NCBI GenBank assembly: GCA_963832405.1
Contig: CAWHUG010000001.1
Coordinates: 375,021 to 439,020, forward strand
Reading direction: 5' to 3'
Origin: an uncultured Isosphaeraceae bacterium
GTDB lineage: Bacteria > Planctomycetota > Planctomycetia > Isosphaerales > Isosphaeraceae
DNA: 64,000 nt
The position numbers were made by a program, and so were the translations under genes. The notes under the pieces are model-generated. The model did no database searches. It saw only the letters and a list, made by a program, of their open reading frames with translations, and was not told the DNA's origin. Shown here one piece after another: positions 4,440 to 59,405 of the stretch (the stretch's first letter is position 1; each line of letters starts with the position of its first letter).

Positions 4440-4890
4440 TCCGGACAGCCCCGAAGGGGCGACAGTCAATAGCCAGGGGCGTCAGCCCCTGGACGGCGAG
4501 ACAAAGCCCCAAAGCGCCTCTCCGCAGGGGACTTTCTCAGCCGGGCGGACAAGTCCCGGACAGTTTCACTAGTGGACGTTCAGACAGTATCCAGGATGCA
4601 AAGGCTTGGGAACATTGGATTTGCTTCAGTGAACCCCTCGACCTTTGCCGCGTAAACTGTCCGCGCCGTTCAGGTGGTTGACCGCCGAGCGTGAGATAGT
4701 GCCCTCCGCAGCCCCTCAGGGGCGACAGAACCCATGGTTTCGCGGGATCTTCTGTCGCCCCTGCGGGGCTCCGGAAGAGGGTGGCGCGGGGACGGGACGG
4801 GTTCCAGGGGCTGACGCCCCTGGCTATTCACTTCCGCCCCTTCGGGGCTGAGAGGCGCGGACGCCGCTGACCCACCCTACGAAGCTACGA
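4440..4890. repeat. Composite palindromic element, family A (about 45-bp terminal inverted repeats AGCCAGGGGCGTCAGCCCCTGG / GCCCCGAAGGGGC, internal palindrome, about 200-bp lower-GC insert) plus a family C half-site at 4860-4880
   Basis: Termini at 4447-4492 and 4804-4850 are exact reverse complements. Compact copies of the same element lie at 27256-27493 and 59170-59405. Confidence 0.8.
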
Positions 4891-5016: not shown

Positions 5017-8000
5017 ATGCACAACGATTACGAACTGCTCAACCCGATCGGAAAGGGACCGCTGGGGACCGTCTATCGGGGGCACGACTTGATCCAGAAT
5101 CGGCCCGTGGCCGTCAAGGTGCTCCATGCCTCGGTGCGGACACGGCTCCAGCGTCGCGACGACTCCTGGGACCGGCTCCGGCAGGTGGCGCAATTCAGCG
5201 CGTCGCGGCGGGACATGGTGCCCGTGCGAGACATTGATCTCGACTCGGGCTGGATCGTCTCCGACCTCATGCGGGGCCGGGTCCGACTCCGGCACGCGGT
5301 GGCGCCGAAGATCGTGGCCGGCATGATGCGGCAGGTGCTGCGGCCGTTGTCGCACCTGCACACCGATCTGGGCCAGCTCCACGGCGCGATTCATCGCCGG
5401 AACCTGCTCTATGACGACGACGGTTACGTCCGTCTCGCGGACCCGCGCGGGATGGCCCTGGGCGTGCCGTCGCCGCTCTTGAACCTGTGTGCCACGTCGG
5501 GCAATCCCGGCTCGGACGAGACGGGGGCGCACGTCGCCTGCAAGCACATGGCGCCCGAGTGGTTCGACGAGGACTTCGGCCCCGTGGGTCCGGCCAGCGA
5601 TCTGTACGCCCTCGGGCTGACCGCGCTGGAGCTGCTCATGGGACGGCGGTTCGCCCGGCTGTTCCGGGGCATCGGCCCCCAGTCGCTCAATCCGGCGGAT
5701 TCCTGGGACCGCTGGCATCGCGACCCGGCCCGCGCGCTGCCCGGCGCCGAGGGCCTGGTTCCGGGGCTGCCCGAGGATCTCGTCCGGGTCGTCGATGGCT
5801 TGACCCGCAAGCAGGTCGCGGAACGCTACCAGAGCGCTCTCGAAGTGCTGGACGACCTGAGCAACTACCGCAAGATCATCCCGATACGGGTGAAGACGAA
5901 GACGCGCAAAACGTCGCGGCACGACGACGGAGCGTCGCGGCCGACACCCGCGCAGCCGGCCTTGCCCGCGCCGGCGCGCCACGGCCCCATCAAGCCGTGC
6001 GCCGGTCGCCGTGCCCGTCGCGACGGTCGCGCCCGCGCCGGTCCGGCCGACCGTCAAGAACGTGGGCACCCGTTCCCCGGTGCGACTGCGCGTCACCCCG
6101 CCCCCCACGCTGAGCGACTACCTGACTGCGCGGGGGCCAGGCGGTTCAAACCCTGCTGCGGGAGAACCGGGCCAGCCAGTTCGGCGTGGCCATGATCGCC
6201 ATCCTGCTGGCCATCGCCGTGCTCTTCTCCGGACAGGTGCGGAACGAGGTCGAGGCCGAGTTCACCGTCGTCCCGCCCGGCCCGGCCGGCAGCAAGGAAG
6301 TCCACGCCGATCTGACGCTCGACCGGGTCGATCCCCGCACCGGCGCCCATACCCCGGTGCAGTCGCAGATCCGGTTGTCGCAGCACGTGTCCTTCAAGAA
6401 ATCGCTGCCGCCCGGGCGCTATGCCGCCACGGTGCGGGCCCGCCGTTCCGGCCGGTCGAGCAGACCTGCGAGGTCGGGCCGCAAGGCCCCAATCACTTCC
6501 GGTCCGCTACAAGGATCGCCGGTCCCCGATCCGCGAGGTTCAGTTGCCCGTCGAGGAGCCGGTCACGCTCTACCTGGAAGCGCCGGGCTACGAGTCGCGC
6601 CGGCTGAACTTGCAGATCCCCGATGGCGAGGGCCCGTACATGCCCGATGAGCTGGCCGAGCTGACCCGCTCGGCCACAACCGAGCGGCTGATCGTGGTCA
6701 AGACCACTCCCGAAACCGCCCAGCTCACCGTCGACGGCAAGCCGCAATCCTTGCGCACGATCAGCTTATCGACCGCCACCGAGCATACGTTCCGGGCGCA
6801 GGCCGAGGGCTTTCTCGAGACCTCCCAGACGCTCCGCGTGGCGGCCGGCGACCAGCCCCTGACCGTGGCGCTCGACCTGACGCCCGACCAGACGCACCGC
6901 AAGGTCCGGCCCCGGACCCATCCCCGGGCGGTCGTGACGCTCCGTCCCCATGGCCGCCCGGACCAGACCCGCACCTTGCACGACGGCGAGGAGTTCGAAT
7001 ACGCCGTCGGCGCCCGGCTGATCGCCTGCGTGATGCTCGACGGCGCGCTCATGTTGCGCGACCACGACGTGACCGTCGAGCGGGGCGAGGGCGTCCAGGA
7101 GCTGAACCTGACCACGCCCGACCCCGGCCGCGTACCGATCCTCGACTCGCCCTACGCCTTGAGGTTCCAGCCCGGCGGGACGTTCCGCAGCGGCTTCGAC
7201 CCCGTGGAATACGGCGCCATTCTCAAGGAGAAACGGATCACGCGGGCGGGGATCGCCTCCTTGCTCGATCCCGCCGGGGACCACGCGCCGAAACCCAGCT
7301 CGCTGTCCGCGGCGGCGGCATCGCTCCAGGCCGGCAATCTCGACAGCGGCCTCTTCGACCAGGCCCGCATCCACGGCGCCCAGAAAATCTGGGAGAACCG
7401 GCAGCAGTTCCGCGCGTCTCGCCGAACACCACGCCGCCCGCGAGATCGTCCTGTCCCACTTCCACGTCTCGGAAGTGCCCGTGACCTGGGATCTCTGGAC
7501 GGCCGTCATGGGCGCCACGGACCTGCCGGCCGCGGCGAGCCGCGAAGTCGGGTACCTCCAGGCCCACCGGGATGATCCCGCCGTCGGCATCAGCTACGTC
7601 CGCTGGCTGATCTTCTGCCGCCGCCTCACCGAGCTGATGCGGAGCGCAGGCCAAATCGACACGTCTTGCGAACTGACGCCCCCCCATGCGATCGAGGTCG
7701 AGTATCTTCTCCGCGGCGGCGCCCCCGACCCGGCCGAGAGTGAGGAGACCGCCGCCGCTCCCCCGGAGAAAGCGCCGCACCGGGACCGGCCCGATATCGC
7801 CTCTTGGCTTGTGGTCGAGTCCAACCTGGCCGTCTGCCGCAATCGCAAGCAGGCGCTCTCCGTGCTCGATCCGAACCTGCGGTCCAACAACCTGCACGTG
7901 ATGCTCGGGCCGGTCGCCACCTGGACGCTGGACGCCGCCGATCCGGACCATCAATACGTCGCGGGGCCGAGCTATCACACCCTGCCGAATGTGCCGAAGG

Positions 8001-8215
8001 TGCTCGCGTGGTCGGCCTCCTGGCCCGCGCCGGCCGTGTTCGGCCTGCCGGACCGGACCCACTTCGAGTTGCACGACCTGAAAGGGTACTGGCCCTGGCA
8101 GCGCGTCGCCCTGCCCAGCCGGACCAATCCGGAGAACCATGTCGGCCTGTACCTGGTCCTGCGCCCGGTCAGCACCCTGGCCGATCGCCGTCCCGCGGCG
8201 GACCTGCGACCGTGA
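5017..8215 (+). CDS. Ser/Thr protein kinase-fold protein (predicted pseudokinase) with a TM segment, PEGA-like repeats and a degenerate C-terminal FGE-sulfatase domain; at least 4 frameshifts
   Basis: Gly loop 'IGKGPLGTV', 'VAVKVL' and 'MAPEW' are present, but HRD is 'HRR' (5392-5400) and DFG is 'DPR'. TM 'MAMIAILLAIAVLFSG'. PEGA-like 'ERLIVVKTTPETAQLTVDGKPQ'. FGE-like 'VTWDLWTAVMGATDL...EVEYLLRGG'. The frames run 0, 1, 2, 0, 1 along the gene. Confidence 0.7.
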
Positions 8216-8256
8216 GTGAAGCCGCCGGAGAGGACGTCGCAGCCGCGTCGTCGTGC

Positions 8257-8386
8257 GTCCCTGAGCTTTCCAGGTTGAGAATGGGCGATACTGGACTGGA
8301 ACCAGTGACCTCCCTTGTAGGGCGGTTTGGTCTGCGTCCGCCATCTTCAGGAAGAGCAGGAAGGTGATCTGCTCGACGTAGGCCAT
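8257..8386 (-). pseudogene. hsdM: 5' stump (about 43 codons) of a type I restriction-modification methyltransferase gene
   Basis: 'MAYVEQITFLLFLKMADADQ...VPVQYRPFSTWKAQ' matches the HsdM N-terminal block (EcoKI 'YVNELASLLFLKMCKETGQEAEYLPEGYRWDDLKSRIGQ'). It then decays into the antisense of the upstream FGE gene. Based on 15-40 residues only. Confidence 0.4.
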
Positions 8387-8392
8387 GTAACG

Positions 8393-8626
8393 TCACTCCA
8401 TGTACTCCGCGAAGTCATCCAGCGGGGCATCGAAGTCCGGGGCTATCCAGAACGAACGGTCCTTGGCCGTGCCCGGCTGGCACGGCCAGCTCGTGCGGGG
8501 TGGACGGGTCACGATGGCAACGGGCTCGCCATCGCTCGTCAGCACCAACTCCTCGCCGGGGACCATACCGGACACGATCTCGGACGGGCTGGTTTGGGCG
8601 GCGGCCAGCGGCAACGTGCGTGGCAT
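8393..8626 (-). CDS. Antitoxin-like small protein: Phd/YefM-like N-terminus plus DUF2281 C-terminus; no cognate toxin nearby
   Basis: 'LVLTSDGEPVAIVTRPP' (Phd-like) and 'PGTAKDRSFWIAPDFDAPLDDFAEYME' (DUF2281 signature 'G.aKG.i..spDFDAPLeDFkeYM'). No PIN-domain ORF within 1 kb. Confidence 0.55.
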   Translation of the reverse strand: MPRTLPLAAAQTSPSEIVSGMVPGEELVLTSDGEPVAIVTRPPRTSWPCQPGTAKDRSFWIAPDFDAPLDDFAEYME

Positions 8627-9126
8627 GTGTAACTCGCTCTCCGTTAGCATCAGGCATAGGCTCTTGGCCGACTTCGAATGAGCGTGATACCCCATTCTAT
8701 ACCCGTGCGGCGATCGTTCCTCAGTGAGAGTACTCGAAGGAGGATCGGGGAACGTCTCACTCGGGGTTGGGCGAGCGACACCAAAAAGCCGCGTCGGGTC
8801 ACGCCCGCGGAGAAGGAGCCGCTCAGCGAAGCGCGGAGGAGGCCGTGAACGACGACACCGCGCCCGAGGAGAGCCCGCCCGAGGTCGGGTTCCCCGAATC
8901 AACCACAGACAATTGCCCCCATCGGTGAGTTCCGAACATGCACAGAGATAACAGCAGGGTCAACGGCTTGCGTCGGGTGCGTTGGCGCCGGACACTGGTC
9001 TTTACTCGAAAAACTGCCGCAGACGAACGGGCACGAATCGGTAGGTTCAAGAGCGTGAAGACTTTGAGGGGTCTCGGGCCGGAGTAACCCGAAGGTCACC
9101 GAAGAAGGTGTCGCGAAGCGATTCCC

Positions 9127-9705
9127 GTGAACCCGACTTCCGTCAGCCTCATCGACCGGCTCCGGAGGGCCAGCCCGGAGAACCCCGACTGGCTCCGCTT
9201 GCAGGAGATCTACCTGCCGCTGATCCGTCATTGGCTGGGTCGTGTGCCGAGCCTGGGCGATGAGGTCGCCGACCTGGCGCAGGAGGTCCTGATCGTCGTG
9301 GCGCGGGAAATCCCCCACTTCGACCGGCAGCGCGAGGGGTCGTTCCGGGCGTGGCTCCGCCAGGTGACCGTGAACAAAGTCAGGACATACCGCAGGTTAC
9401 AACAACGGCGGCCGGTCACCGGGTTGGATGCCGCGGACGGGTTCCTCGACCAACTGGCCGACCCACACAGCGAACTCGCCCGGGAGTGGGACATCGAGCA
9501 CGACCGGTACGTGGTGGAGAAACTGCTGGCGGTGGTTCGACCGGACTTCAGCGCCACGACCTGGGAGGCGTTCCAAAAGTTCGCCCTCGACGGCCTCCCG
9601 GCCGCGGACGTGGCCCGGGAACTGGGCCTGTCGGAAAATTCCGTGATCCAAACTAAGGCCAGGATTCTCAAGAGGTTACGAGAAGAGGCCGGCGACCTTC
9701 TGTGA
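9127..9705 (+). CDS. ECF-family RNA polymerase sigma-70 factor (GTG start)
   Basis: Sigma-70 region 2 'DLAQEVLIVVAREIPHFDR...FRAWLRQVTVNKV' and region 4 'LPAADVARELGLSENSVIQTKARILKRL'. Confidence 0.9.
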   Translation: MNPTSVSLIDRLRRASPENPDWLRLQEIYLPLIRHWLGRVPSLGDEVADLAQEVLIVVAREIPHFDRQREGSFRAWLRQVTVNKVRTYRRLQQRRPVTGLDAADGFLDQLADPHSELAREWDIEHDRYVVEKLLAVVRPDFSATTWEAFQKFALDGLPAADVARELGLSENSVIQTKARILKRLREEAGDLL

Positions 9706-9731
9706 ATTTTTTGGGATTTTTCGGGTTTTCG
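9681..9731 (+). terminator. Candidate intrinsic terminator of the ECF sigma gene
   Basis: GC hairpin AGAAGAGGCCGGCGACCTTCT overlapping the stop codon, followed by a T-rich tract TGAATTTTTTGGGATTTTTCGGGTTTTC. T-rich runs are rare in this GC-rich DNA. Confidence 0.35.
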
Positions 9732-9841
9732 CGGCATGTCCCCCGTTGTTCCGGCCTTTCTCTTATAGTTGGGCTGGTTTCGGTTTGACGCGGTAAGGTT
9801 TTGCAATGAGCTGAGCCAGCGCAAGAAGCGGACGCCCTACT

Positions 9842-10289
9842 ACCGGATCGAGGGAATCAGGTCTCCATTGTCGGCGGCAAGGGCTATCGCCTGCCGACGG
9901 AGGCGGAGTGGGAATATGCCTGCCGCGCGGGGAGCACGGCAAAGTATCCGTTTGGAGAGGGCGAAGCCGATCTGGGTAAGTATGCCTGGTACGACAAGAA
10001 TTCGGAGGATAAGACGCATCCGGTGGGCCAGAAGCAGCCGAACGGCTGGGGCCTGCACGACATGCTCGGGAATGTCTGGGAATGGTGCCAGGACGGCTAT
10101 GCTACCGATTATTACAAAGCAGCGCCGCCGGCTGACCCGCCGGGCCCTGCCGAGGCCCCGTCCCGGGTGTTCCGGGGCGGTTGCTGGCGCGACGACCCGG
10201 GGTGCTGCCGCCCGGCGTACCGGCTCAGGAGCACGCCGGCGATCCGGTCCTACATTCTGGGCTTCCGCCTGGCCGCAGTCCAGGACTGA
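9842..10289 (+). pseudogene. C-terminal about 140-aa stump of an FGE-sulfatase domain, the remnant of the ECF-associated Ser/Thr kinase; +1 frameshift in a CCC run at 10019
   Basis: 'GYRLPTEAEWEYACRAGSTAKYPFGE' and 'PNGWGLHDMLGNVWEWCQDGY...RVFRGGCWRDDPGCCRPAYR' are canonical FGE/SUMF1 blocks. No kinase domain lies upstream. The open frame starts directly after a stop at 9812. Confidence 0.6.
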
Positions 10290-10291
10290 GA

Positions 10292-10365
10292 GTTGTAGTT
10301 GTAGGGTGCGTGAAACGCACCATGTCCCACATCGCTTTGGGATTGGTGCGTTCCACGCACCCTAC
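10292..10365. repeat. Palindromic element, family C variant (GTAGGGTGCGTG..CACGCACCCTAC), preceded by a GTTGTAG x2 tandem
   Basis: Inverted repeat read directly; it shares the GTAGGGTG/CACCCTAC termini with family C. Confidence 0.7.
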
Positions 10366-10400
10366 CTTCTGAGCAGGTCCGGCCTGAAGTCCTCGACGAC

Positions 10401-11764
10401 ATGTTTCTGGAGCCCGATCATGTACCTCGTTCCGCTCGTCATGATCGCCGCTGGGTCTGGCGCCGGCAGGAAGGCAGGCGAGAGTCGCTCGATCCGCCCC
10501 AGAGAGTCGCGGTCCTGCCCGTGTTCTTCGTGCCGCAAGGGGAGTCGTCGCCGACGGAGGACCAGGCGATACGGCTGCACGATTACCTGAGATGGTGCCA
10601 GGCCCGGTACCGGGAGTTGCTGGGGGGCAAGGACACGTTCCTCATCGCCCAGGAGGCGCCCCTCATCTACGACAGCAAGCGGCCGCTGGCCGAGTTGAAA
10701 CGTCTGCCCGAGGACGCCGCTCCGCAGATCGTCAGCGAGTCCTGACGGCTTCCAGACAGAACCGATTTAATAGCAAGTACATCTTTGTCGCCGTCATCAT
10801 GAACCCGAACGACGGCTGGCCGGCGGGGGGCGGGCGACCGTTCAATGGTGGATTCAACACGGGCGGCGGGATCGTGATCATGTCCTCGAACGGTCTGGAC
10901 CGCGCGCCCAACTTCCAGTCCACCTTGCAGCACGAGCTCGGCCACGCATTCGGGCTGCCGCATGTGGATGTGTATGGCTATGACATGCAGACCAACATGT
11001 CGATGATGTCGTACAACCCGTCGCACCACACAAATGGTTTCGAGCCGTCGGCCACGCCCGGCCGGTTCATTCCCGAAGACCGCGCGGGCTGGCGCTGAAC
11101 CGGAGAGTCTTCGCAAACAAGAAGTTCGACCCCAAAGTCGATATGCCGACCGCCTACAAGCTGGCGAAGCTCGTCTGGCTGGGGCCAATGACGATCCCCG
11201 GCCAGCCCCCGTATGCGCCCGTCGTGACAACCACGTCGGGCGAGGACATCGGCACCAAGGCGGCCAACATCGTGGGAACGCGCAGTCGAGCCCAGCCTGG
11301 CGCCGGAGAACGTGGAGAGCGGCGGTACAAACTTCCACACCCAGACCATGTGGCAATCGCGCCCCTCCGCGACCGGATGGGTCGATGTCGAGGTTGCCTT
11401 TCCGACCGCCGTGACTCTCACAGCGGTCGGCGTTCATTCCCAGCACAGCGGCCGTTATCACGCCGCGGACCGTGTCCGCATCGAAGCCCGCCAGAAAACG
11501 GGAGTCACGGTCGTCGGCGAGAACACGCTCGAATCGGTCGACCAGGTGGTCCCGATCCCGCCAACCTCGGCTCAGGTCTGGCGCTTGTCGTTTCATGCGG
11601 CCAACAACACCACGGTCGTTCTCCGGGGACTCCAGTTCTTCACCAAGGGGGGCGAATCGTGCCCCCGATGGTGCCCGCAGGGCCGTGAGCATCTGAGAGG
11701 GTGTACGAGAGGTCTTCTCGTTCATCCTCCGACGTGCTCTCGACCCCCGCGCACTTTCCTGTGA
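10401..11764 (+). CDS. Secreted metzincin-type zinc metalloprotease with a C-terminal F5/8 type C (discoidin)-like domain; at least 3 frameshifts
   Basis: 'HELGHAFGLPH' (HExxHxxGxxH) plus Met-turn 'SMMSY'. C-terminal 'FHTQTMWQSRPSATGWVDVEVAFPTAVTLTAVGVHSQ...VWRLSF' is discoidin-like. The reading frame switches near 10740, 11098 and 11310. Confidence 0.6.
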
Positions 11765-19817: not shown

Positions 19818-20563
19818 TCAGCGGCGTTGATTCCAGGCGGCGCTGCGATAGCGTTCCCGCTCGAGCGCGACGGCCCGGGTGCGCTCCTCCGGCGTGACTT
19901 CGACGAAATGCGCCTCCAGGCCAAGCGCCGAGAGCAATGTCCCGCGGAGCGGCTCGACCCAGGACGCAGGGGTCGGATCGAGATCCGCCAGTTCGCGCAG
20001 GCCCGGCAGTTCCGGCGTGCGTCTGCGCGGGCCAGCAAGATCGAGCCGTGCTGGAGGACGGCGGCGTGCCAGCGCCGCTGGGCACTGCCGACCACCTTGC
20101 ACCTCCCAACGACGAGATCCTCCGGATCGCGGTCCTGGAAACAGAGAAACGGGCGGTCGGGACGATCCGGATCATCACCGCGCCGGCGGGCCAGCGCACC
20201 GGCCTTCTGGAGCATGGCGGCGATCGCCGCATGCACGCCCTGGTACAGGTCCACGGCACGGGCCCCGAGGCGATGGGCGCGGGGCACGACCACGGTATAG
20301 GTGATCTCATGCTCATGCCAGATCGCGCCGCCGCCCGTGGCTCGGCGCACGACGGCCGCGCCTTGCCAGCGCGGATCGGCCGTCGCGCTGAACTCCTGAA
20401 AATACCCCAGGCTCAAGGTCGGCTCCGACCAGGCATACGTCCGGATCACGGCCGCGGTCGGCTCCGCGCAGACCGACTCCAGCAACGCTTCATCGAGCGC
20501 CATCTGCGTGGGCCCGGAAGCAACCAGATGCGGCAAGATGCGGCCTTTCCATCGCTCACGCAT
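19818..20563 (-). CDS. Lipoate-protein ligase / octanoyltransferase (LplA/LipM family); one frameshift near 20040
   Basis: 'MALDEALLESV', 'RRATGGGAIWHEHEITYTVV' and 'KVVGSAQRRWHAAVLQHGSILL'. The C-terminal tail is recovered in the other frame (19818-20102). Confidence 0.75.
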
Positions 20564-22027
20564 GACCGTTGTCCGCAGGCGTCCAGCGCAAGCGCGGCGT
20601 CTTGGCTGCGGCGACCTCGTCCGGCCGGCTGATCGGCGTCGTCAAGGGGGCGTCATGCAAGGTCTGGGGGTCCTCGGCGGCGATCTCCAGCAGGACGCGC
20701 GCGAAGGTCTCCAGGGTAGCGCGGCTCTCCGTCTCGGTCGGCTCAATCATGAGCGCCTCGGAGACAAGCAACGGAAAATAGACCGTCGGCGCATGGATGT
20801 TGTGATCCAGCAACCGCTTGGCGATGTCCATCGCGCGGATGTTGCGATCGCGGGCCAGGGTCCGCGCCGAGGCGACAAATTCGTGCATGCAGCGCTCGCC
20901 GAACGGCACCGGGTACACAGGACGGACCAAGCTCATCAAATAGTTCGCATTCAGCACCGCGTGCTCGGCCACCTGCCGCAGTCCGTCGGGCCCCTGGCTG
21001 CGGATGTAGAAATAGGCCCGGAGCAAGATCCCCACGTTGCCGAAGTACGACCGGACCCGGCCGATCGACTGCGGGCGGTCATGATCCAGGAAGAACGTGC
21101 CCTCGGGACGCCGCGCCACGGTCGGCGCCGGCAAGAACGGCGCCAGGGCGCCCGCACCGCGATCGGACCGGCGCCAGGACCGCCCCCGCCGTGCGGTCCC
21201 GAGAAGGTCTTGTGCGGATTGTAGTGCATCAGGTCCACGCCCATCTCGCCGGGGCGGACCACGCCGAGAATCGCGTTCATGTTCGCGCCGTCGAGGTACA
21301 GCAAGGCGCCACGGTCGTGCAGCCGCCGCGCGATCGTGCCGACCTGCGGGTCGAACAGCCCGAGCGTGTTCGGATTGGTCATCATGAACACGGCCGTGCG
21401 ATCGTCGAGCTTGCCCTGCAAATCGTCCAGGTCGACAAACCCTTGCGCGTTGCTCTTGATCGTGACCGCCTCGAAGCCCGCCAGGTGCGCCGAGGCCGGG
21501 TTCGTGCCGTGGGCACTGTCAGGAATGAGGACCTTCGTGCGCGGCTCGCCCCGGCTGCGGAAATACGCCGCGGCGACCAGCAGGGCCGTCAGTTCTCCCT
21601 GCGCCCCCGCCGCCGGTTGCAGGCTGACGGCGTCCAGCCCGGCGATCTCGGCAAGGAACGCTTGCAATTCGTGCAGGATGTGCAACAGGCCCTGCATCGT
21701 CGATTCATCCTGGTAAGGATGGATCGACGCTAACCCCGGGAGTGCGGCCAGCCGCTCGTTGCGCTTCGGGTTGTACTTCATCGTACACGACCCGAGCGGG
21801 TAGAAATTCGTATCGATCGACATGTTGGCGACCGACAGATTGGTGTAGTGCCGCACCACGTCGAGCTCGCCCAGCTCCGGCAAAGGGGGCGGCGCCTCGG
21901 CGCGATACGCCGCCGGGATCAATTCATCGAGCGGCCGCGCGGGCACGTCCGCCGCCGGCACGATCTGGGTGCCGCGGCCGGGACGGCTGGTCTCGAAGAG
22001 CAGGGGGGGTGGATCGAGCTTGTACAT
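20556..22027 (-). CDS. gcvPB: Glycine dehydrogenase (decarboxylating) subunit 2; one frameshift near 21120
   Basis: 'GSCTMKYNP' and 'NPHKTFSGPHGGGGPGAGP' PLP-site blocks. The C-terminal half lies in ORF 20556-21134. Confidence 0.9.
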
Positions 22028-22052
22028 GATGAGATATCTTGATGGATTGAGA

Positions 22053-22700
22053 TCAGCGCCGCACGACCGTCAGCGCGAAATCACCGCCCAGGCCGCATTC
22101 GACGGCCAGGTGGATGTAGAAGAGTGCAAACGCCTCCAGCATGCGCGCCTTGTCGAGCGTGCCACTGTCGATGGGATCGAAGCCCGTCAGAGCGATCAGG
22201 TGGCGAACGATGGTCTTGGCTTCGTGGTCGTCCCCGCAATAAAAGCAGCTCAGGACTTTGCCCCCGAGCACGGCGCTGCCGATCGTGCTCGCGGCGACCG
22301 TGTTAAACGCCTTGACGACCCTCGCTCCGGGTGCCCAGCGTGTCATCTCTTCGGCGACCGACGTGCCCGGCGGCAAATCCAGACCCGACAGGTCGGGCGA
22401 GAGCGGGTTGATGCAATCGAGGACGATCTTGCCCGCCAGATCCCCGGCCTGGGCCACCACCTCCCGGACGACCGGCCAGGGTGTGGCCACGACCACGACC
22501 TCGCCGGCCTGGGCGGCCTCGGAAACGGTCGTCGCTCGTGCATGGCCGCCGAGTTCCGCCAGCAGGACCTGAATATCGGGGATGACGTGCTCCGGCAGTC
22601 CGAACACGATCTCATGCCCGGCCGCCGCCCAGACTCGCCCCAACCGGCCGCCGACCTGGCCGGCTCCCAGAATGGCAATACGCATCGAATTCTGTATCAT
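22053..22700 (-). CDS. NADP oxidoreductase of the coenzyme F420-dependent (F420_oxidored/Fno-like) family, embedded in the gcv operon
   Basis: Rossmann 'MRIAILGAGQVGGRLG' and family blocks 'VVVVATPWP' and 'KIVLDCINPL'. Confidence 0.75.
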   Translation of the reverse strand: MIQNSMRIAILGAGQVGGRLGRVWAAAGHEIVFGLPEHVIPDIQVLLAELGGHARATTVSEAAQAGEVVVVATPWPVVREVVAQAGDLAGKIVLDCINPLSPDLSGLDLPPGTSVAEEMTRWAPGARVVKAFNTVAASTIGSAVLGGKVLSCFYCGDDHEAKTIVRHLIALTGFDPIDSGTLDKARMLEAFALFYIHLAVECGLGGDFALTVVRR

Positions 22701-27255: not shown

Positions 27256-27493
27256 ATCCGGAAGAGCCCCGAAGGGGCGGCAGCGCATAGCCAGGGGCGT
27301 CAGCCCCTGGTGGGGAGTGAACGACGCGTCGACGGCGCCCCTCCACAGCCCCGCAGGGGCGACAGAAAGCGAAGCGGCGCCACGGCTTCCGTCGCCCCTG
27401 CGGGGCTGCGGAGGCGAATGGCGCGGTCGCGGTCCCGTTTCCAGGGGCTGACGCCCCTGGCTACACGCGGCCGCCCCTTCGGGGCTAAAACCA
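27256..27493. repeat. Palindromic MITE-like element, family A (compact copy)
   Basis: GCCCCGAAGGGGC / AGCCAGGGGCGTCAGCCCCTGG termini mirrored at the other end, with an internal GGGGCGACAG...CTGTCGCCCC palindrome. Confidence 0.85.
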
Positions 27494-27931
27494 GACTTCC
27501 CGGATAGCCTCTTACGCTGGCTCGACATCGGGATCGCTGACCCAGACCATTCAAGCGGCCGGTCGTGTGGTCTCCCAATGCGACGGTCAGCAGCAGGGCG
27601 CCGGTCGCCACCGCGGTTGCCGCCCTGGTTCCGGTCCACCCGGCCACCTCTTCAACTGCAACGGCCGCCGCCGAAGCCGCGCAGGCCGTGGTCCCCAGCG
27701 GCCCGTGGGCGATCACGCTCATGGCGCCGACCGTGCGCCGAGGGCGTTCTCAGCGCGGAGTTGCGACGCCGCCTCGGGCGGCTCGCCCTGACCCAGCCCT
27801 GGTCGGTATGACCGGCGGCGTCATGTTTTTCGGGTGCGGTCGTCGTGAGGTTTGATTAGGATGGACTCCCGCCAACCCGTGCCTCGATTCCAGGGAGCAC
27901 GGGGGCGGGACTCTCCGAACCATCCGCCACG

Positions 27932-29274
27932 ATGGACATACTCGACATTCTGTACATCGCGTCGCTGGTCTTCGCCAACGGGTTTTTCGTGGCCGCCGAG
28001 TTCTCTCTGGTCAAGGTGCGCACGTCGCAGATTGACTTGCTCGCCGAACAGGGCCAGTGGGCGGCCAAGCTCACCAGCAAGGCCCTGGACCACCTCGACG
28101 CCTATTTGTCGGCGTCGCAGTTGGGCATCACCGTGGCCAGCCTGGCGCTGGGGACGGCCATCCATTCCAAGGTTCAGCCGGCGCTGCAGGCCGGGTTCGC
28201 CTGGATCGGCTTGCCGATCCGGCCGGTCGTCGTCGGCACGGTCGCCTTCTCGGTCGTGCCGCTGCTGGCACTGTCACTGGTGACGTTCCTTCACATGGCG
28301 CTGGGGGAGCAGCGCCGAAGAACCTGGCGATCCGCTCGCCGCGCGGGCTGGCGCTGATCACGGCGCCGGTGCTGGTGGTTTTTTACTATCTGTTCTGGCC
28401 GGTGATCTGGCTCTTGAACACGGCCAGCAACCTGACCCTGTACCTGCTCGGGCTGGGTGGTCGAAGACCGGCCGAGTTGGTCCACACCGAGGAAGAGCTG
28501 CGGCACATCCTGGGCGAAAGCGTCGCGGGCGGCGCCTTGTCCCGAAACGAGCGGGTGATGATCGAAAACGTCCTGAACCTGGAGGAAAAAACGGCCCGGC
28601 GGGTGATGGTGCCGCGTCCCGACATCGTGTATCTCAGCCTGGCCCGCTCGCTGGAGGACAACTTGCGGCTGGTGCGGCAGGCCAGCCACACCCGTTACCC
28701 GCTCTGCGAGGACGACCTGACGACCGTCCTGGGGATGATCCACGTCAAGGATCTGTTCCGCACGGGCACCGCCGCCAACGGCCGGCTCGATCTCCGCAAG
28801 CTGGTCCGCAAAGTGCCGTTCGTGCCCGAGTCCATCCACCTCGACGCTCTCCTGCTCCAGTTCCAGCAGGATCGGGTTCATCTGGCGATGCTGCTGGACG
28901 AGTACGGCGACGTCGTCGGCATGGTCACGCTCGAAAACGTGATCGAGGAGCTGGTCGGACCGATCCAGGATGAGTTTGACCGCGAGACGCCGCAGGTGGT
29001 CGCGCTGGGCAGGGAGGTCTTCGAGGTGGATGCGGCCTGCCCTCTGGACGTACTCGAGGATATGTGCGGCGTCCCGGTGCCCGAAACCGAGGCGGAGACA
29101 GCGGGCGGCCTGATCCTGGACCTTCTGGGACGGTTGGCGCAAATCGGCGACAGCGTCGTTGTGGACGGCCATCGCCTGGTCGTGATCCAAGCCGATCGCA
29201 CCCGCATCCGCCGCGTCCGCGTCGAACCGATCGAGGCCGCGCCGGAACCGACGGATGAGCCGGACGCCGAGTGA
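27932..29274 (+). CDS. CNNM/CorC/HlyC-family transporter (DUF21 + CBS pair + CorC_HlyC); one frameshift near 28310
   Basis: DUF21 'FFVAAEFSLVKVRTSQI'. CBS region 'RRVMVPRPDIV'. C-terminal 'GDSVVVDGHRLVVIQADRTRIRRVRV'. Confidence 0.85.
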
Positions 29275-55072: not shown

Positions 55073-57640
55073 TTATTCCGCCACGTCACCGAGGCCGACG
55101 TCGATGCCCTGGCCGCCTTCTGTTTGGTGACAATGAACGGCGACCAGGATCTTGCGCCGGGTTTCATCGCGGCACGCGCTTCGCGCGAGATTTCCAGCGG
55201 CACATAGCTCGTCGTGAAACCCCCTTCCGTCGCGGCCGGGATGCCGTTGACGTAAATCTCCACATCCTCGTCGTGATAGCACGATGAATTGGAGATTGGG
55301 ATGCGCTCCCTCGGGGATCGTGATCTCGCCGCGCAGCCAGATGTCGTCGGTCTTCCATTCCGATGTGCTGGACGAATCCCGGCGGACGCGTGCCGAAACC
55401 GGCGCGGCCTTCCTTCCAACCCGTCATGTCGAAATCGGTCTTCGTCCAGTTGTCCGCGGGTTTCCGCGTCGTGTAGTGCCACGTCTGCTGGGTGGGCACG
55501 ACCATGCTGGTTTTCGGCGGCGTGGGCAGCGGCGACCAGTTCGCGGGCTTCAGGTGATCGCGGGAGGCCCACTTCTTCCAGGTCGCGCGGTCGGTCAGCA
55601 TCTTGATGAAGAATCCGCCGACAACCGGCCGGGCGTGCATGCCGCCGCTCTGGACCTTGTCGGTCACATACGAATCGGCGATCGGATCACGCGCGGTCGT
55701 TTCGTTCAGGTAGTCGTAGATCGGCGCGATGATGGCTTCGAAGTCAGACGGCTTCTCCGCCAGCGTCGCGCTCCAGAACGACCAGTCGGTCTTCGTCAAG
55801 TGCGTGCGCGAATCGAGCGGCACGCCGTAGCGCAGCATCACGTTCTTATAGTGCGCGACTTCCTTCCGCGCGACGGACGGCGGGAAGACGTTCAAGCCGA
55901 GGATGCGGTCCCAGACGAGGTTGTATTTCTGGCTCCAGGTTCCCGGCTTGTCGAACGCGAGCCGGTAATGATCCCCCTCGGCGGCGACCTTCATCCAGTG
56001 CTCCGCGTCGGCTTTCGCCAGGCCGGCGTACTTCTTCGCGGTGTCCTCATCGCCGCGCATCCGGCACAGATCGCCGTAGGCCGCGAGGCCGAGGATCGCC
56101 TTCACGGAGAGATTCGCGTTGTGCGCGAGATGGCCCATGAAATCGTCCGTGCAAAGCTGCTCCTCAGGGTCCAGGCCGTACTTTTCCAGGTACTTCGCCC
56201 ACTGCGTGAGCGCCGGCCACCAGGGCGCGACAAAGTCCGCGTTGCCTTCCGCGTGCGCGATGGCGTCGCAGAGGATCAACATGTTGCCGCTCTCCTCCAC
56301 GGGCATGCCCTCGCCGCCGTCATCGCGGCCGGTGACGATCGGATACGTCCCCAGATCGTGCGGCGCGTTGGGGAATTTCCAGTGCGGTGATTCGGAGTAC
56401 ATGAGCACATGAACCAGTGATGCCTTCGCCAGGGTCGGACTGAGCAGGATCCAGATCGGGTCCATGGGGAAGAACACGTCCACCGTCGCGATATCACCGT
56501 TGCTGGTGTTTTCCTTCGTGAAGAACAGCGGCTGCTTGTTCGCATCGGCGGCGAGGCCGTTCGCGGCGACGCATTCGCGGTAGGAGAGCGCGGTGATCTT
56601 CGCATATTTCTCGCCACCGAGCCTGGTCATGTCCGCCATCAACTCGTTGTCGAACGCCTCGCATCGCGCGAGCAGCTTCGCGTAGTCCTGCGACGCGGTC
56701 TGCAAGAGTCCGGCGATCTTCACGCCGTTCCGCGCCCAGTAGGGGAGCAGCTTCTGGCCGAAATACTTGATCGCGAAGATCTCGTCGTACGCGACGATCA
56801 CCTGCCGCTCGACGGCTTGTCCGCCGACGCTGCCCAGCGCGAACGCGAATGCCATCACGGGCTCGGCGTCGCTGGCCGCGCGGGGCATGCGCGCATCGTC
56901 GGCCGCGGGCAGGCCGCCGTTCTCGGCGAACGTGTTCTCCAGAACCGCGCTGGCGCCGATCGCGGATGTCGATTGCCCGCGCGGCGCAGCGGCGTAGGCG
57001 TAGCCCCAGTTGATGCGGTGATCGTCGCCACTGGAGCCGAGAACACTCTGCGCTTGCGTGCCGCGCGCAAGAGCGTCAAATCGCCGGCCGTTTGCCGCGA
57101 CCACTCGACAAGCTCCGTGGTCTTGTTCACGGCAAGTTGCGAGCTCGTGCTGTCATAGAGTTCAATCTTGTGCTTCGCGCCGTCGCACGAGCGGACATTC
57201 CAGGTGATGTAGCTCAGCGGCCACGAATAAACGTCGAGATCGTCGGGCAGCGCGGGCTGCATGAAGGTCATCGTCACGTGGACGCCCGCGTCCTCGAACT
57301 CGTAGATGCTGCGTGTCGGCAAGACCACGACGGACTTCTGCGTGAAGGCCGGCGCCGTTTTCGGTTCCACGCCCATCAGCCGGTACGTCTTCCCGTCGAT
57401 GCGGATCAGGCTCACGAGCGCATGGTCGTGCCGTGTCCAGTGCTTCGTGGTCGCGTCGTTCAGATGGTCGGCTTCCGACCAGATGCTGAGGAACGGATTG
57501 TACGTGACGAGGGGAACCGCGGGCGGTCGGAAATCGGCCCGTGCCGAGAACGCGATCCCCAGGCTGCTGGCAAGCAGTGCGAGGACAAGCCGCGCGGCGC
57601 AGTCTTGGAGATTCTTCTCATCGAGGGACTCCTTGGCATG
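55073..57640 (-). CDS. Secreted glutaminase-A-like (GtaA; DUF4964/DUF5127/DUF4965/DUF1793) six-hairpin glycosidase-like protein with a C-terminal beta-sandwich; at least 3 frameshifts
   Basis: N-terminus 'VPLVTYNPFLSIWSEADHLND...WTRHDH'. Core 'FFPMDPIWILLSP'. C-terminal 'KILVAVHCHQTEGGQGIDVGL'. Signal peptide 'LVLALLASSLGIAFSARA'. Confidence 0.7.
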
Positions 57641-57760
57641 GACATCGGATCGGTCGAGGCACAGTCAGACGCAACGTTCGTGGTCGGGCGATCCCGGCTC
57701 AATAAACTAGCACAGAACGTTCCCCAGTTCACGCCCTGAGAGGATGTACGAGAAGGGGTC

Positions 57761-59169: not shown

Positions 59170-59405
59170 TCTGTTCCAAAAGCCCCGAAGGGGCGAAAGT
59201 GAATAGCCCGGGGCGTCAGCCCCGGGAACCGGAAACGACGCGCTACAAGCCCTCTCCGAAGCCCGAAGGGGCGGCCGATGTCTTTGTCCCACAGGCCCTT
59301 CTGTCGCCCCTTCGGGGCTTCGGAGGAAGACTCTCTCGTCGCAGCTTTCCGGTTCCCGGGGCTGACGCCCCGGGCTATTCACTTTCGCCCCTTCGGGGCT
59401 TTTGG
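59170..59405. repeat. Family A palindromic MITE-like element (copy 3)
   Basis: GCCCCGAAGGGGCG...ATAGCCCGGGGCGTCAGCCCCGGG mirrored, with an internal GGGGCGACAG-type palindrome. Confidence 0.85.

Follow-up and report, generated by a model that had tools for sequence, protein, structure and literature searches.

What became of the genes that lie between the stop codon of a large kinase gene and the next gene, 2.2 kb further on, in an uncultured Isosphaeraceae bacterium, and did one event or several leave them in their present state? The patch occupies positions 8216–10400 of a 64,000-nt stretch of DNA (hereafter the window), in which the kinase gene ends at 8215 and the next gene begins at 10401. 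A sequence-only reading had seen here a piece of a type I restriction-modification (R-M) methylase gene, a lone antitoxin gene, an ECF sigma factor gene and a stump of an FGE domain, and had taken them together as a scar of deletion or rearrangement. The observation is real: profile searches, tblastn and DNA alignments agree, and all four elements lie where they had been placed or close by, each far above chance. The patch probably consists of relics of at least three independent deletions in a variable region of an Isosphaeraceae-like chromosome. Two of its genes, for an antitoxin and for an ECF sigma factor, are intact, but each stands without its partner gene, and a short decayed methylase piece lies alongside. 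This is ordinary genome decay and not a new system. The following features are found in the patch.

8230..8389, minus strand: decayed, non-functional piece from within a type I R-M methylase gene (hsdM, codons ~26–95; DNA alignment, tblastn, profile).
8387..8396, minus strand: junction, in which the GTG start and first few nucleotides of a deleted vapC (PIN) gene overlap the vapB stop and are joined to hsdM codon 26 (alignments).
8393..8626, minus strand: intact vapB-type antitoxin gene, 77 aa, with a Phd/YefM-like N-terminus and a DUF2281 C-terminus, its toxin gone (homologues, profiles, GC3 signal).
8627..9126, no strand: 500-bp stretch that separates the divergent vapB and sigma genes and contains no recognisable gene (flat codon-position GC profile).
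9127..9705, plus strand: intact gene for a 192-aa ECF sigma factor; in its planctomycete family, zf-HC2 Ser/Thr kinase genes lie downstream (Pfam, NCBIfam, homologues).
9728..9758, plus strand: promoter-like motif TTCGCGGCA-N17-GCCTT, found ahead of the module family's kinase genes (conserved block ~9714–9769).
9775..10289, plus strand: what is left of the kinase's extracytoplasmic FGE-sulfatase domain (profile positions 99–254 of 255), with a 1-nt frame change at ~9853–9856 (Pfam, tblastn).
10301..10365, no strand: strong hairpin directly past the relic's stop codon (22-nt arms, 95% complementary).

The antitoxin gene has 365 homologues, mostly of 77 aa and 73–88% identical over full coverage; its best matches are hundreds of 77-aa DUF2281/VapB-type antitoxins that are 83–88% identical over the full length. 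The GC3 frame signal is that of a coding sequence. The DUF2281 assignment finds qualified agreement in the profiles, since DUF2281 (Pfam, E=7e-5) and TA_VapB (NCBIfam, E=2.5e-7) both score below their cut-offs, but all of the 77 aa are covered at up to 88% identity to VapB/DUF2281 antitoxins, and the homologues carry precomputed PF10047.

In four separate contexts (loci L035, L036, L043–45 and L046) vapB is followed, with a 4-nt overlap, by a PIN gene of 128–129 aa. The window has no toxin ORF after the full-length vapB, and PIN queries found no match by tblastn in the 64 kb, in keeping with the antitoxin without a toxin partner described earlier. The start of the missing gene can still be seen. 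The window reads GTGACGTTAC, compared with GTGACGCTGCTC and GTGACGCTCCTA of intact cassettes, and its match to intact vapBC covers the vapB stop and the first 5–10 nt of vapC and then ends; local alignments to L035 and L036 stop at 8391, and homology to hsdM runs from 8389. This abrupt end bears out the proposal that the toxin gene was lost by deletion. As in type II VapBC systems (a DUF2281/Phd-YefM-type VapB with a PIN VapC), the antitoxin has the usual length, and the GTGA overlap and first toxin bases remain, but the toxin is absent from about its second or third codon, leaving an orphan antitoxin only.

On the far side of the junction, window positions 8389–8337 align with nt 76–128 of the hsdM genes of L037 and L038 at 52 of 53 nucleotides (local DNA alignment). 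There follow a 2-nt gap, 22 near-identical nucleotides, a loss of ~55 nt, and a distal part with several 1-nt gaps and a 5-nt insertion, up to the end of the alignment at hsdM nt 285. One of the N-termini of planctomycete HsdM proteins (...DDGLSYMAYVEQITFLLFLKMADEQTKPPYNRKPIVP...) matches the window by tblastn at E=1e-8, and the relic is identical at 17 of 17 residues to MAYVEQITFLLFLKMAD of these proteins. The HsdM_N profile (Pfam) reaches E=0.009, below its cut-off. Its sole PDB match is to residues 31–64 of the StySJI M protein, and 15 of 17 weak tblastn matches in plasmids fall within DNA-methyltransferase genes.

The piece had been called a 5′ stump of hsdM. Its origin stands, but not its position, for it starts at codon 26, reaches ~codon 95 and has suffered many indels. 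In HsdM proper 26 residues precede MAYVEQ, and the ATG at 8386 corresponds to methylase Met27; this ATG is fortuitous and the piece internal. The hsdM frame is broken by the 2-nt gap after 17 codons, and the ORF opening at 8386 runs antisense to the kinase gene past ~8300, where it lacks a coding signal of its own. HsdM_N and N6_Mtase are not found together in one open frame, codons 26–95 in a broken frame being all that is present. By tblastn, neither the catalytic part (queries: the last 444 aa and the last 373 aa of two HsdM proteins) nor further hsdM sequence was detected elsewhere in the 64 kb, and the HsdR and HsdS proteins of L037 gave no significant match in the window. Compared with HsdM of the EcoKI/StySJI type (HsdM_N plus N6_Mtase), the relic lacks the N6_Mtase domain, hsdS and hsdR, and carries frame-breaking indels. 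A tRNA 3′ half at 8270–8340 (minus strand), as a possible mark of an integration site, was considered and rejected: ARAGORN found no tRNA in the window and Rfam none at E≤1, and hsdM codons explain the tRNA-like look.

From the junction we infer that a vapB-vapC cassette formerly lay directly upstream of hsdM on the minus strand. A deletion of ~0.45 kb, a size that assumes vapC and hsdM abutted as the PIN gene and hsdM do in L037, would have joined vapC nucleotides 5–10 to hsdM codon 26. A second loss would have taken hsdM from ~codon 95 onward. The remaining 160 bp are dead and have gained indels since, whereas vapB has its own start, length and sequence preserved. It probably continues to be expressed and to act as an orphan antitoxin or autorepressor. 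None of the four vapBC homologue contexts examined adjoins hsdM, so the adjacency is read from the junction itself. L037, where a PIN gene abuts hsdM within a type I operon, is an architectural parallel only, because its PIN gene has no similarity to the vapC of the window's family. The complete R-M/toxin–antitoxin (TA) “defence island” that had been envisaged may have existed at this site.

The vapBC cassettes of the window's family lie in unrelated contexts in every genome examined, and therefore move. Together with hsdM 5′ regions that are 85–98% identical in DNA between different genomes, which suggests exchange, this lends some weight to a different course of events, in which the vapB/vapC-start/hsdM piece arrived already truncated, by illegitimate recombination or horizontal transfer, and only the kinase deletion described below occurred in place. 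The G+C content of the patch (0.59–0.64, against 0.69–0.72 in the adjoining kinase gene) and the lack of hsdS, hsdR and the rest of hsdM in the window, or of any trace of them in the 500-bp gap, point the same way. However, the orientation of the junction and the logic of the 4-nt overlap match an operon with a PIN gene abutting hsdM, as in L037, and the far stronger decay of hsdM than of vapB fits a long stay as dead DNA beside a selected gene, although it does not determine where the decay took place. We regard such a pre-truncated arrival as rather unlikely and favor deletions in place.

The 500-bp gap at 8627–9126 yielded no hsdS or hsdR relic. Searches of this stretch by tblastx and blastn against the fetched loci and the rest of the window gave no match of note, and it has no Rfam match among those at E≤1 for 7500–11500. 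A sigma-70 consensus scan of 8100–10500 revealed no recognisable promoter upstream of the sigma gene, and the sequences upstream of the sigma homologues vary too much for alignment with the window.

The sigma factor itself is intact. Sigma70_r2 (E=2e-11) and TIGR02937 (E=1.4e-18) score above their respective cut-offs and Sigma70_r4_2 (E=3.8e-5, 23.7 bits) just below, and the protein has the two-domain form (regions 2 and 4 only) and the length of ~190 aa by which such factors are recognised. It is 94% identical to P0132, shares 65–73% identity along its whole length with homologues from Isosphaeraceae and Tundrisphaera, and carries 70 of the 70 invariant columns of a 25-sequence alignment that includes the window sigma itself.

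Downstream of the homologues lie one to three large genes that combine a zf-HC2 anti-sigma domain, a Ser/Thr kinase and a sensor domain (zf-HC2, Pkinase, PEGA and FGE or another sensor domain). Such a zf-HC2-STK gene was found in nearly every locus examined, often in tandem, and it starts at most 900 bp away in 13 of 18 copies and ~1 to 4.5 kb away in the other five. The partner is thus also an anti-sigma-domain protein, an aspect missing from the sequence-only reading. In the window no zf-HC2 or kinase sequence follows position 9705, the sole match being the unrelated upstream kinase (~25% identity, no zf-HC2); the earlier description of an ECF sigma factor without its expected Ser/Thr kinase is correct. 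ECF sigma factors linked to Ser/Thr protein kinases make up groups ECF43, ECF59–62, ECF217, ECF267 and ECF283 of the ECF classification, and for most groups regulation of the sigma factor by the kinase protein, through phosphorylation or sequestration, is a hypothesis in the literature (PMC7826278). The window family resembles these groups in having a two-domain ECF sigma factor followed, in almost every homologue locus, by a Ser/Thr kinase gene. It differs in that the kinase gene adds an N-terminal zf-HC2 anti-sigma-type zinc finger; the window copy differs further in having no kinase gene.

What is kept of the kinase gene is the motif upstream of it and the last 60% of its FGE domain, and the suspicion that most of a sigma-linked kinase gene was deleted here is well founded. 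The stump at 9855–10289 matches FGE-sulfatase (Pfam) at E=1.6e-34 over profile positions 109–254. It had been described as the last ~140 codons of the domain, starting abruptly after a stop; the stump is confirmed, and 26 more FGE codons lie at 9775–9855 in another frame. With the 1-nt shift repaired, the relic covers positions 99–254 of 255 at E=3.3e-36, the first 98 positions of PF03781 being missing. The kinases of L004 and L007 match the window by tblastn at 9784–10274 only, with residues 790–898 and 388–551. The relic is 56–64% identical to the C-terminal-side FGE-sulfatase (SUMF1-like) sensor of these planctomycete kinases, but differs in that all protein upstream of position 99 is gone. 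All three reading frames are closed by stop codons between 9766 and 9812, downstream of the sigma gene's end at 9705, and the stump therefore belongs to no intact gene. Relocation of the missing part within the window was also rejected, as tblastn gave no match.

The motif ends 17 nt before the FGE relic in the window, and because it runs directly into FGE position 99, ~2.3–2.4 kb are missing. The deletion begins 6–16 nt past the motif and ends at FGE position 99. Lost with it were the leader, both the zf-HC2 anti-sigma and the kinase domains, the membrane segment and the initial portion of the sensor. With the kinase gene deleted, the sigma factor is left without a cis-encoded regulator. That sigma-kinase modules do decay by deletion is evident from L020, an Illumina-assembled MAG with an independent, different deletion in a paralogous module. 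The hairpin at 10301–10365 (−56.4 kcal/mol, z=−7.7 versus shuffles) may have served the former kinase gene as its terminator; no other copy occurs in the window or the loci, and a repeated element was rejected.

The upstream kinase (5017–8215) and the FGE stump were also considered as one gene split by an insertion. This was rejected: the last kinase domain has no FGE match, and it aligns to within 8–10 residues of the C-terminus of the closest long homologues (693 and 1073 aa), from which we conclude that the end of this kinase is natural and the scar lies outside it.

In all likelihood the FGE piece can neither fold nor be exported and has no function. It retains a coding-like codon-position G+C, and if the shift at ~9855 is a sequencing error an ORF of ~173 codons (TTG 9769 to 10289) begins 11 nt after the motif; likewise, the ATG at 8386 lies 6 nt past the vapB stop in the same frame. 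One could suppose from this that the pieces were recruited to new functions: the retained promoter-like motif might, for example, drive a short independent protein made of the FGE fragment, or translation of the hsdM N-terminal peptide might be coupled to that of vapB, with the peptide replacing the toxin. Such recruitment is scarcely credible, given that the FGE piece lacks 98 of 255 profile positions and any signal or membrane segment, and that the hsdM frame is broken early and runs on as antisense sequence. We continue to treat both pieces as relics.

At least three separate breakpoints are present: one between vapC and hsdM at ~8390, one where hsdM breaks off on its 3′ side (~8230) and one at 9764–9774, left by the kinase deletion. 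Since they flank an intact sigma gene, several events are indicated rather than one. These breakpoints, what each piece derives from, the intact state of vapB and sigma and the usual gene layout of the homologues are observed directly, whereas the former gene order, how many events took place and in which sequence, and any activity of vapB and the sigma factor today are inferred. The view of the patch as a deletion scar therefore holds for the loss of toxin and kinase, but not as a single event. Similarity to HsdM is present and the FGE stump lies outside any intact gene, which are the two points on which that view could have failed.

Could the deletions have arisen in assembly, from error-prone long reads, while the real genome has intact vapC, hsdM and kinase genes? 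The window shows ~15 frameshift-like frame changes in 64 kb, some of which fall inside a single Pfam domain of a housekeeping gene and break it in two (CNNM, DUF5127, glycine cleavage P-protein); the “big kinase” before 8215 is read in four frames, and the source contig looks like the long-read MAG contigs from which most of the related loci come. These small 1-nt changes are probably assembly errors. Being window-wide, they are no evidence of decay, and they make base-level details such as 1–2-nt gaps uncertain. However, 1-nt indel errors cannot make losses of 0.45–2.4 kb, none of the junctions lies in a collapsible repeat, and the internal loss of ~55 nt and 5-nt insertion of the hsdM relic are typical of old dead DNA. 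A comparable deletion also occurs in a related module in the short-read assembly L020. An artefact is very unlikely, and we retain real deletions as the explanation.

The window's flanking genes are shared by none of the 24 closest sigma loci, and a sigma-factor genome scan of at least 34 loci found, among the matches listed, none with these flanking genes. The next-closest sigma factor, P0133 (78%), sits at a contig end in an unrelated context. A metagenome scan with the kinase C-terminal domain and an exact search for the vapB/hsdM junction gave no match.

For annotation, which is the main value of this analysis, neither the start of the hsdM-like ORF nor the FGE ORF deserves a gene call, both being relics; vapB and sigma are orphans, and the long antisense ORF at 7238–8386 is spurious. 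The many 1-nt frame changes of the assembly should not be read as pseudogenisation.

The one reusable by-product is the motif between the sigma and kinase genes. TTCGCGnCA-N17-GCCTT, a criterion defined here from the homologues and not a published one, has one match in the window versus 0 expected, and 19 matches in 13 loci, all on the sigma strand and all with the 17-nt spacer. Of the 19, ten follow a sigma stop at a distance of 12–14 nt, and 14 have a zf-HC2-STK start downstream of them. An RNA structure for 9714–9769 was rejected, the central 17 nt being unconserved and the pairing inconsistent over 13 aligned copies; the fixed 17-nt spacer is better suited to a two-box DNA site. The motif, with its fixed spacing before zf-HC2 kinase genes, is a testable candidate promoter for the ECF family. 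We suggest, tentatively and as the less probable case, that TTCGCGnCA-N17-GCCTT(TCTCT) is the promoter for this planctomycete ECF sigma family and the window a natural “regulator knock-out” of an ECF-kinase module. Sigma-dependent transcription would then start ~7–10 nt after GCCTTTCTCT, and where a module is intact, expression of its zf-HC2-kinase regulator or regulators would be driven by the sigma factor itself. The window's sigma factor would be unrestrained or dependent on paralogous kinases, and the promoter would now lead only into the dead FGE fragment or, beyond the hairpin, into the metalloprotease-like gene downstream. The locus is an example of the turnover of TA, R-M and ECF-kinase modules in planctomycetes, which are rich in paralogous copies.

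G+C content is about 0.59-0.75 over the first 20 kb of the window, and a plot of G+C by codon position gives a very clean separation of coding frames in this genome. Around the patch at 8216-10400 the plot resolves the following:

5017-8215, plus strand: upstream large kinase gene, coding signal with three frame changes (frame 1 to 3 to 1 to 2); its four reading frames run from 5017 to about 5990, from 6186 to about 6440, from about 6466 to 7425 and from 7403 to 8215
8393 to about 8650, minus strand: antitoxin gene, coding signal
8650-9126: stretch without coding signal
9127-9705, plus strand: sigma gene, coding signal
about 9900-10290, plus strand: FGE piece, coding signal

Frame changes are not confined to this region. 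A heuristic searching for places where one coding stretch gives way directly to another in a different frame, with a non-coding tail or head on each, finds about 15 frameshift-like junctions across the 64 kb, or about one per 4 kb (for example at about 2672, 6468, 7414, 11067, 21156, 28315, 33723, 41647, 47590, 50807, 57003 and 61295). Several divide one Pfam domain in ordinary genes. CNNM is split between ORF 27860-28357 (profile 4-102) and ORF 28036-29274 (profile 101-181), and DUF5127 between the minus-strand ORFs 56855-57664 (profile 1-89) and 55164-57152 (profile 81-229); the glycine cleavage P-protein gene (20556-22069, minus strand) is divided at about 21150. The related loci are mostly long-read MAG contigs, and the window-wide frame changes are most likely consensus indel errors of a long-read assembly, which bear on every pseudogene call in the window. 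Because frame changes of 1-2 nt were taken as probable consensus errors, our argument is built on large structural features only.

The antitoxin gene (8393-8626, minus strand) encodes a 77-aa product. Its homologues number in the hundreds, almost all of exactly this length, with 73-88% identity over full coverage, and carry the annotations DUF2281, Phd/YefM or "antitoxin of toxin-antitoxin stability system". In all four separate genomic contexts compared (the loci L035, L036 and L046, and the three near-identical JGI contigs L043-L045, counted once), the next gene overlaps the antitoxin gene by 4 nt and encodes a PIN-domain protein of 128-129 aa, and the genes around the cassette are different in each. 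Judged from these neighborhoods, the cassette of this antitoxin family is a mobile vapBC. The window DNA is about 80% identical to L035 and L036 across the entire antitoxin gene, its stop codon and the overlapping GTG toxin start (junction sequence GTGACGTTAC in the window, GTGACGCTGCTC and GTGACGCTCCTA in the intact cassettes). Local alignment stops at 8391, with no similarity past the junction, whereas the mutual alignment of L035 and L036 goes on to the end of vapC. A tblastn search of the 64 kb with PIN queries found no PIN sequence. This end of similarity just after the toxin start, together with the lack of PIN sequence in the window, shows that the vapC toxin gene has been deleted from about its second or third codon on, in agreement with the sequence-only reading of the patch as a deletion or rearrangement scar. 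The remaining vapB is intact and near the family consensus. Expression probably continues, with the product acting as an orphan antitoxin or autorepressor that could possibly neutralise paralogous VapC toxins.

Directly past the vapC breakpoint, the same reading frame continues as (R)YMAYVEQITFLLFLKMADADQTALQG... This piece has a weak match to Pfam HsdM_N (E=0.009, profile 21-40) and a single, weak PDB match, to residues 31-64 of the StySJI M protein; 15 of its 17 weak tblastn matches to plasmids fall inside DNA methyltransferase genes. Planctomycete HsdM N-termini from a large protein collection read MSTDTQQVVSKAWNFAHVLRDDGLSYMAYVEQITFLLFLKMADEQTKPPYNRKPIVPAGYDW..., and the ATG at 8386 therefore corresponds to an internal Met27, the first 25 codons being missing. 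What had been described as a 5′ stump of hsdM is thus hsdM-derived but has no 5′ end. The HsdM proteins compared are encoded in genuine type I loci: in L037, hsdR (ResIII, EcoEI_R_C) and hsdS (Methylase_S) are followed by a 316-aa gene and by a PIN gene that leads into hsdM with a 4-nt overlap, and L038-L041 encode HsdM_N followed by N6_Mtase. Aligned with L037, the relic reads as follows:

8389-8337, minus strand: hsdM nt 76-128 of L037, 52 of 53 positions identical
next, minus strand: 2-nt gap that breaks the frame
next, minus strand: 22 nt near-identical to hsdM
next, minus strand: loss of about 55 nt
next, minus strand: recognisable stretch CAGTATCGCC... (QYRHILEKLG region), interrupted by several single-nucleotide gaps and an insertion of 5 nt
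end, at window 8230: hsdM nt 285, 15 bp from the kinase stop codon

The density and size of these indels are far above the window error rate, and the relic is therefore old, dead DNA, presumably without function. No other part of HsdM, and nothing of HsdS or HsdR, was found in the 64 kb by tblastn. The ORF that starts at the ATG at 8386 (7238-8386, minus strand) is antisense to the kinase gene past about 8215 and shows no coding signal of its own in the codon-position G+C plot.

In L038-L041, hsdM is split into ORFs of 60 and 444 aa by a +1 frameshift near codon 46 (L038 hsdM, 8001-9603). The 60-aa product is identical on seven contigs, and the split was read directly in four loci, each of a different assembly. 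The frameshift may be genuine, and either inactivating or phase-variable, in that population. In L037 (2071-15246) the first hsdM is called only as a 64-aa ORF. About 1.4 kb downstream stands a cluster of integrase (rve) and AAA-ATPase genes, and hsdM occurs a second time 5.7 kb beyond that.

The large kinase gene that ends beside the relic (about 1066 codons) encodes an N-terminal Pkinase domain, has no zf-HC2 and gives weak PEGA-like matches. Its C-terminal domain (7475-8215) falls in no Pfam family but has homologues at the C-termini of 693- and 1073-aa proteins. The alignment with these closest long homologues stops only 8-10 residues short of their C-terminus; the gene is therefore complete at its 3′ end and was not cut by the downstream events.

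The sigma ORF encodes a complete two-domain ECF sigma factor, 65-73% identical, among the matches listed, to genes of Tundrisphaera sp. TA3 and Isosphaeraceae/Isosphaerales MAGs; the nearest relative on record (P0132) is 94% identical. These matches mark the source as an Isosphaeraceae-like planctomycete. Its alignment with 24 homologues is gap-free, and it has all 70 of the columns invariant across the 25 sequences, itself included. The gene following sigma in homologous loci encodes a 900-1300-aa protein that begins with a zf-HC2 zinc finger of the anti-sigma-factor type and continues through a Ser/Thr kinase domain and a membrane segment to PEGA-like repeats and an outer domain. The outer domain varies: L004, L007, L019 and L024 have FGE-sulfatase, and L001 has 3-keto-disaccharide hydrolase together with C-type lectin. 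Among the 18 sigma copies with enough downstream sequence, the zf-HC2 kinase gene starts less than 900 bp away in 13 and about 1 to 4.5 kb away in the other five, and many loci have two or three such genes in tandem. ECF groups associated with kinases have been described, above all from planctomycetes, and control by phosphorylation has been proposed for them (PMC7826278).

The 70 nt past the sigma stop in the window are more than arbitrary spacer DNA. At many loci the sequence ahead of the kinase genes matches them, with the consensus TTTTCGCGGCA(G/T)GTCC-N-CGGCCTTTCTCT. A strict form, TTCGCGnCA-N{16,18}-GCCTT, occurs once in the window (9728-9758, plus strand), where none is expected. It has 19 instances in 13 sigma/kinase module loci (L001, L002, L004, L005, L007-L011, L018, L023, L024 and L042), all on the sigma strand and all with a 17-nt spacer; the extended form is TTCGCGnCA-N17-GCCTT(TCTCT). 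Ten instances lie 12-14 nt past the sigma stop codon, and 14 precede residue 1 of a zf-HC2 kinase, by 50-68 nt or, in six cases, 257-380 nt; second and third tandem kinases are among those preceded by the motif. Its two boxes are invariant and always 17 nt apart, and the spacer between them is not conserved. It looks like a promoter, and it is a candidate promoter of the sigma-kinase module family that this sigma factor itself might read.

In the window, FGE homology sets in just 17 nt past the motif, with the Trp codon at 9775. The relic runs first in frame 1 (WFRFDAVRFCNELSQRKKRTPYYRIEG) and, after a 1-nt shift at about 9853-9856, in frame 3 to a stop at 10289; with the frame repaired, it covers FGE-sulfatase profile 99-254 of 255 (E=3.3e-36). 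The L004 and L007 kinases match the window by tblastn in the FGE stretch only (residues 790-898 and 388-551, respectively). The interval from the motif to the same residue is 2425 nt in L004, 2324 nt in L007 and 26 nt in the window, and about 2.3-2.4 kb is therefore missing. By comparison with these loci, everything from the leader through zf-HC2, the kinase domain, the membrane segment and the PEGA region has gone, along with the first 40% of the FGE domain, which bears out the proposed loss of most of a sigma-linked kinase gene. Stops in all three frames between 9766 and 9812, together with the end of the sigma gene at 9705, rule out the alternative that the FGE stump is part of an intact gene read in a different frame. 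The FGE piece is presumably without function. Directly 3′ of its stop, a hairpin (10301-10365; 22-nt arms, -56.4 kcal/mol, z=-7.7) is probably the terminator of the old kinase gene; each arm holds its own small palindrome, no U-tract follows, and no second copy was found in the window or the fetched loci.

The next gene (10401-11764, plus strand) is seen in three or four frames, one piece carrying an HExxH metalloprotease-like motif (LQHELGHAFGLPH) and weak Reprolysin_5 and Peptidase_M66 matches. It is probably a single gene whose frame was disrupted by errors like those elsewhere in the window. The Rfam Acido-Lenti-1 RNA motif has six intergenic copies in the window, all above gathering score, which form three inverted pairs with starts 174-357 nt apart and resemble the termini of small repeat elements:

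4447-4492 (minus strand) and 4804-4849 (plus strand): Acido-Lenti-1 pair
27265-27310 (minus strand) and 27441-27486 (plus strand): Acido-Lenti-1 pair
59181-59226 (minus strand) and 59355-59400 (plus strand): Acido-Lenti-1 pair

At least three breakpoints (about 8230, about 8390 and 9764-9774) lie on both sides of the intact sigma gene, and the patch is therefore the product of more than one event. In the simplest history of the left part, a vapBC cassette would have stood immediately upstream of hsdM. A parallel exists in L037, where a PIN gene, unrelated in sequence to this vapC family, abuts hsdM. A deletion of about 0.45 kb would have fused vapC to hsdM codon 26, the remaining hsdM would have been lost, and the 160-bp remnant would have decayed slowly. 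It is unlikely that the left part was instead imported as an already truncated fragment. The right part is a clean deletion within the sigma-kinase module. The elements first noticed in the patch are all present. Where toxin and kinase are concerned, their interpretation as a deletion scar is essentially right, but it was imprecise for hsdM; a whole "defence island" formerly at the site is unproven. The patch is made of known gene kinds and known modes of decay, with no departure from either.

A paralogous module in L020 (10001-12472), from a short-read Isosphaerales MAG, has an independent, different deletion. Here sigma ends prematurely, past residue ~139. The ORF that follows (627 aa) has its start at the membrane segment and retains 3keto-disac_hyd and FGE outer domains, with no zf-HC2 and no kinase. 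Sigma-kinase modules are therefore visibly under birth-and-death turnover.

The sigma factor of the window would today be without a cis-encoded regulator. The upstream large kinase was rejected as its present partner, having no zf-HC2 and a kinase domain only about 25% identical. If sigma is normally sequestered by the zf-HC2 domain, the sigma factor would now be free; if it needs phosphorylation, it would be silent, or it may be served by one of the many paralogous kinases. Only the fixed-spacing motif ahead of the kinase genes might repay follow-up.
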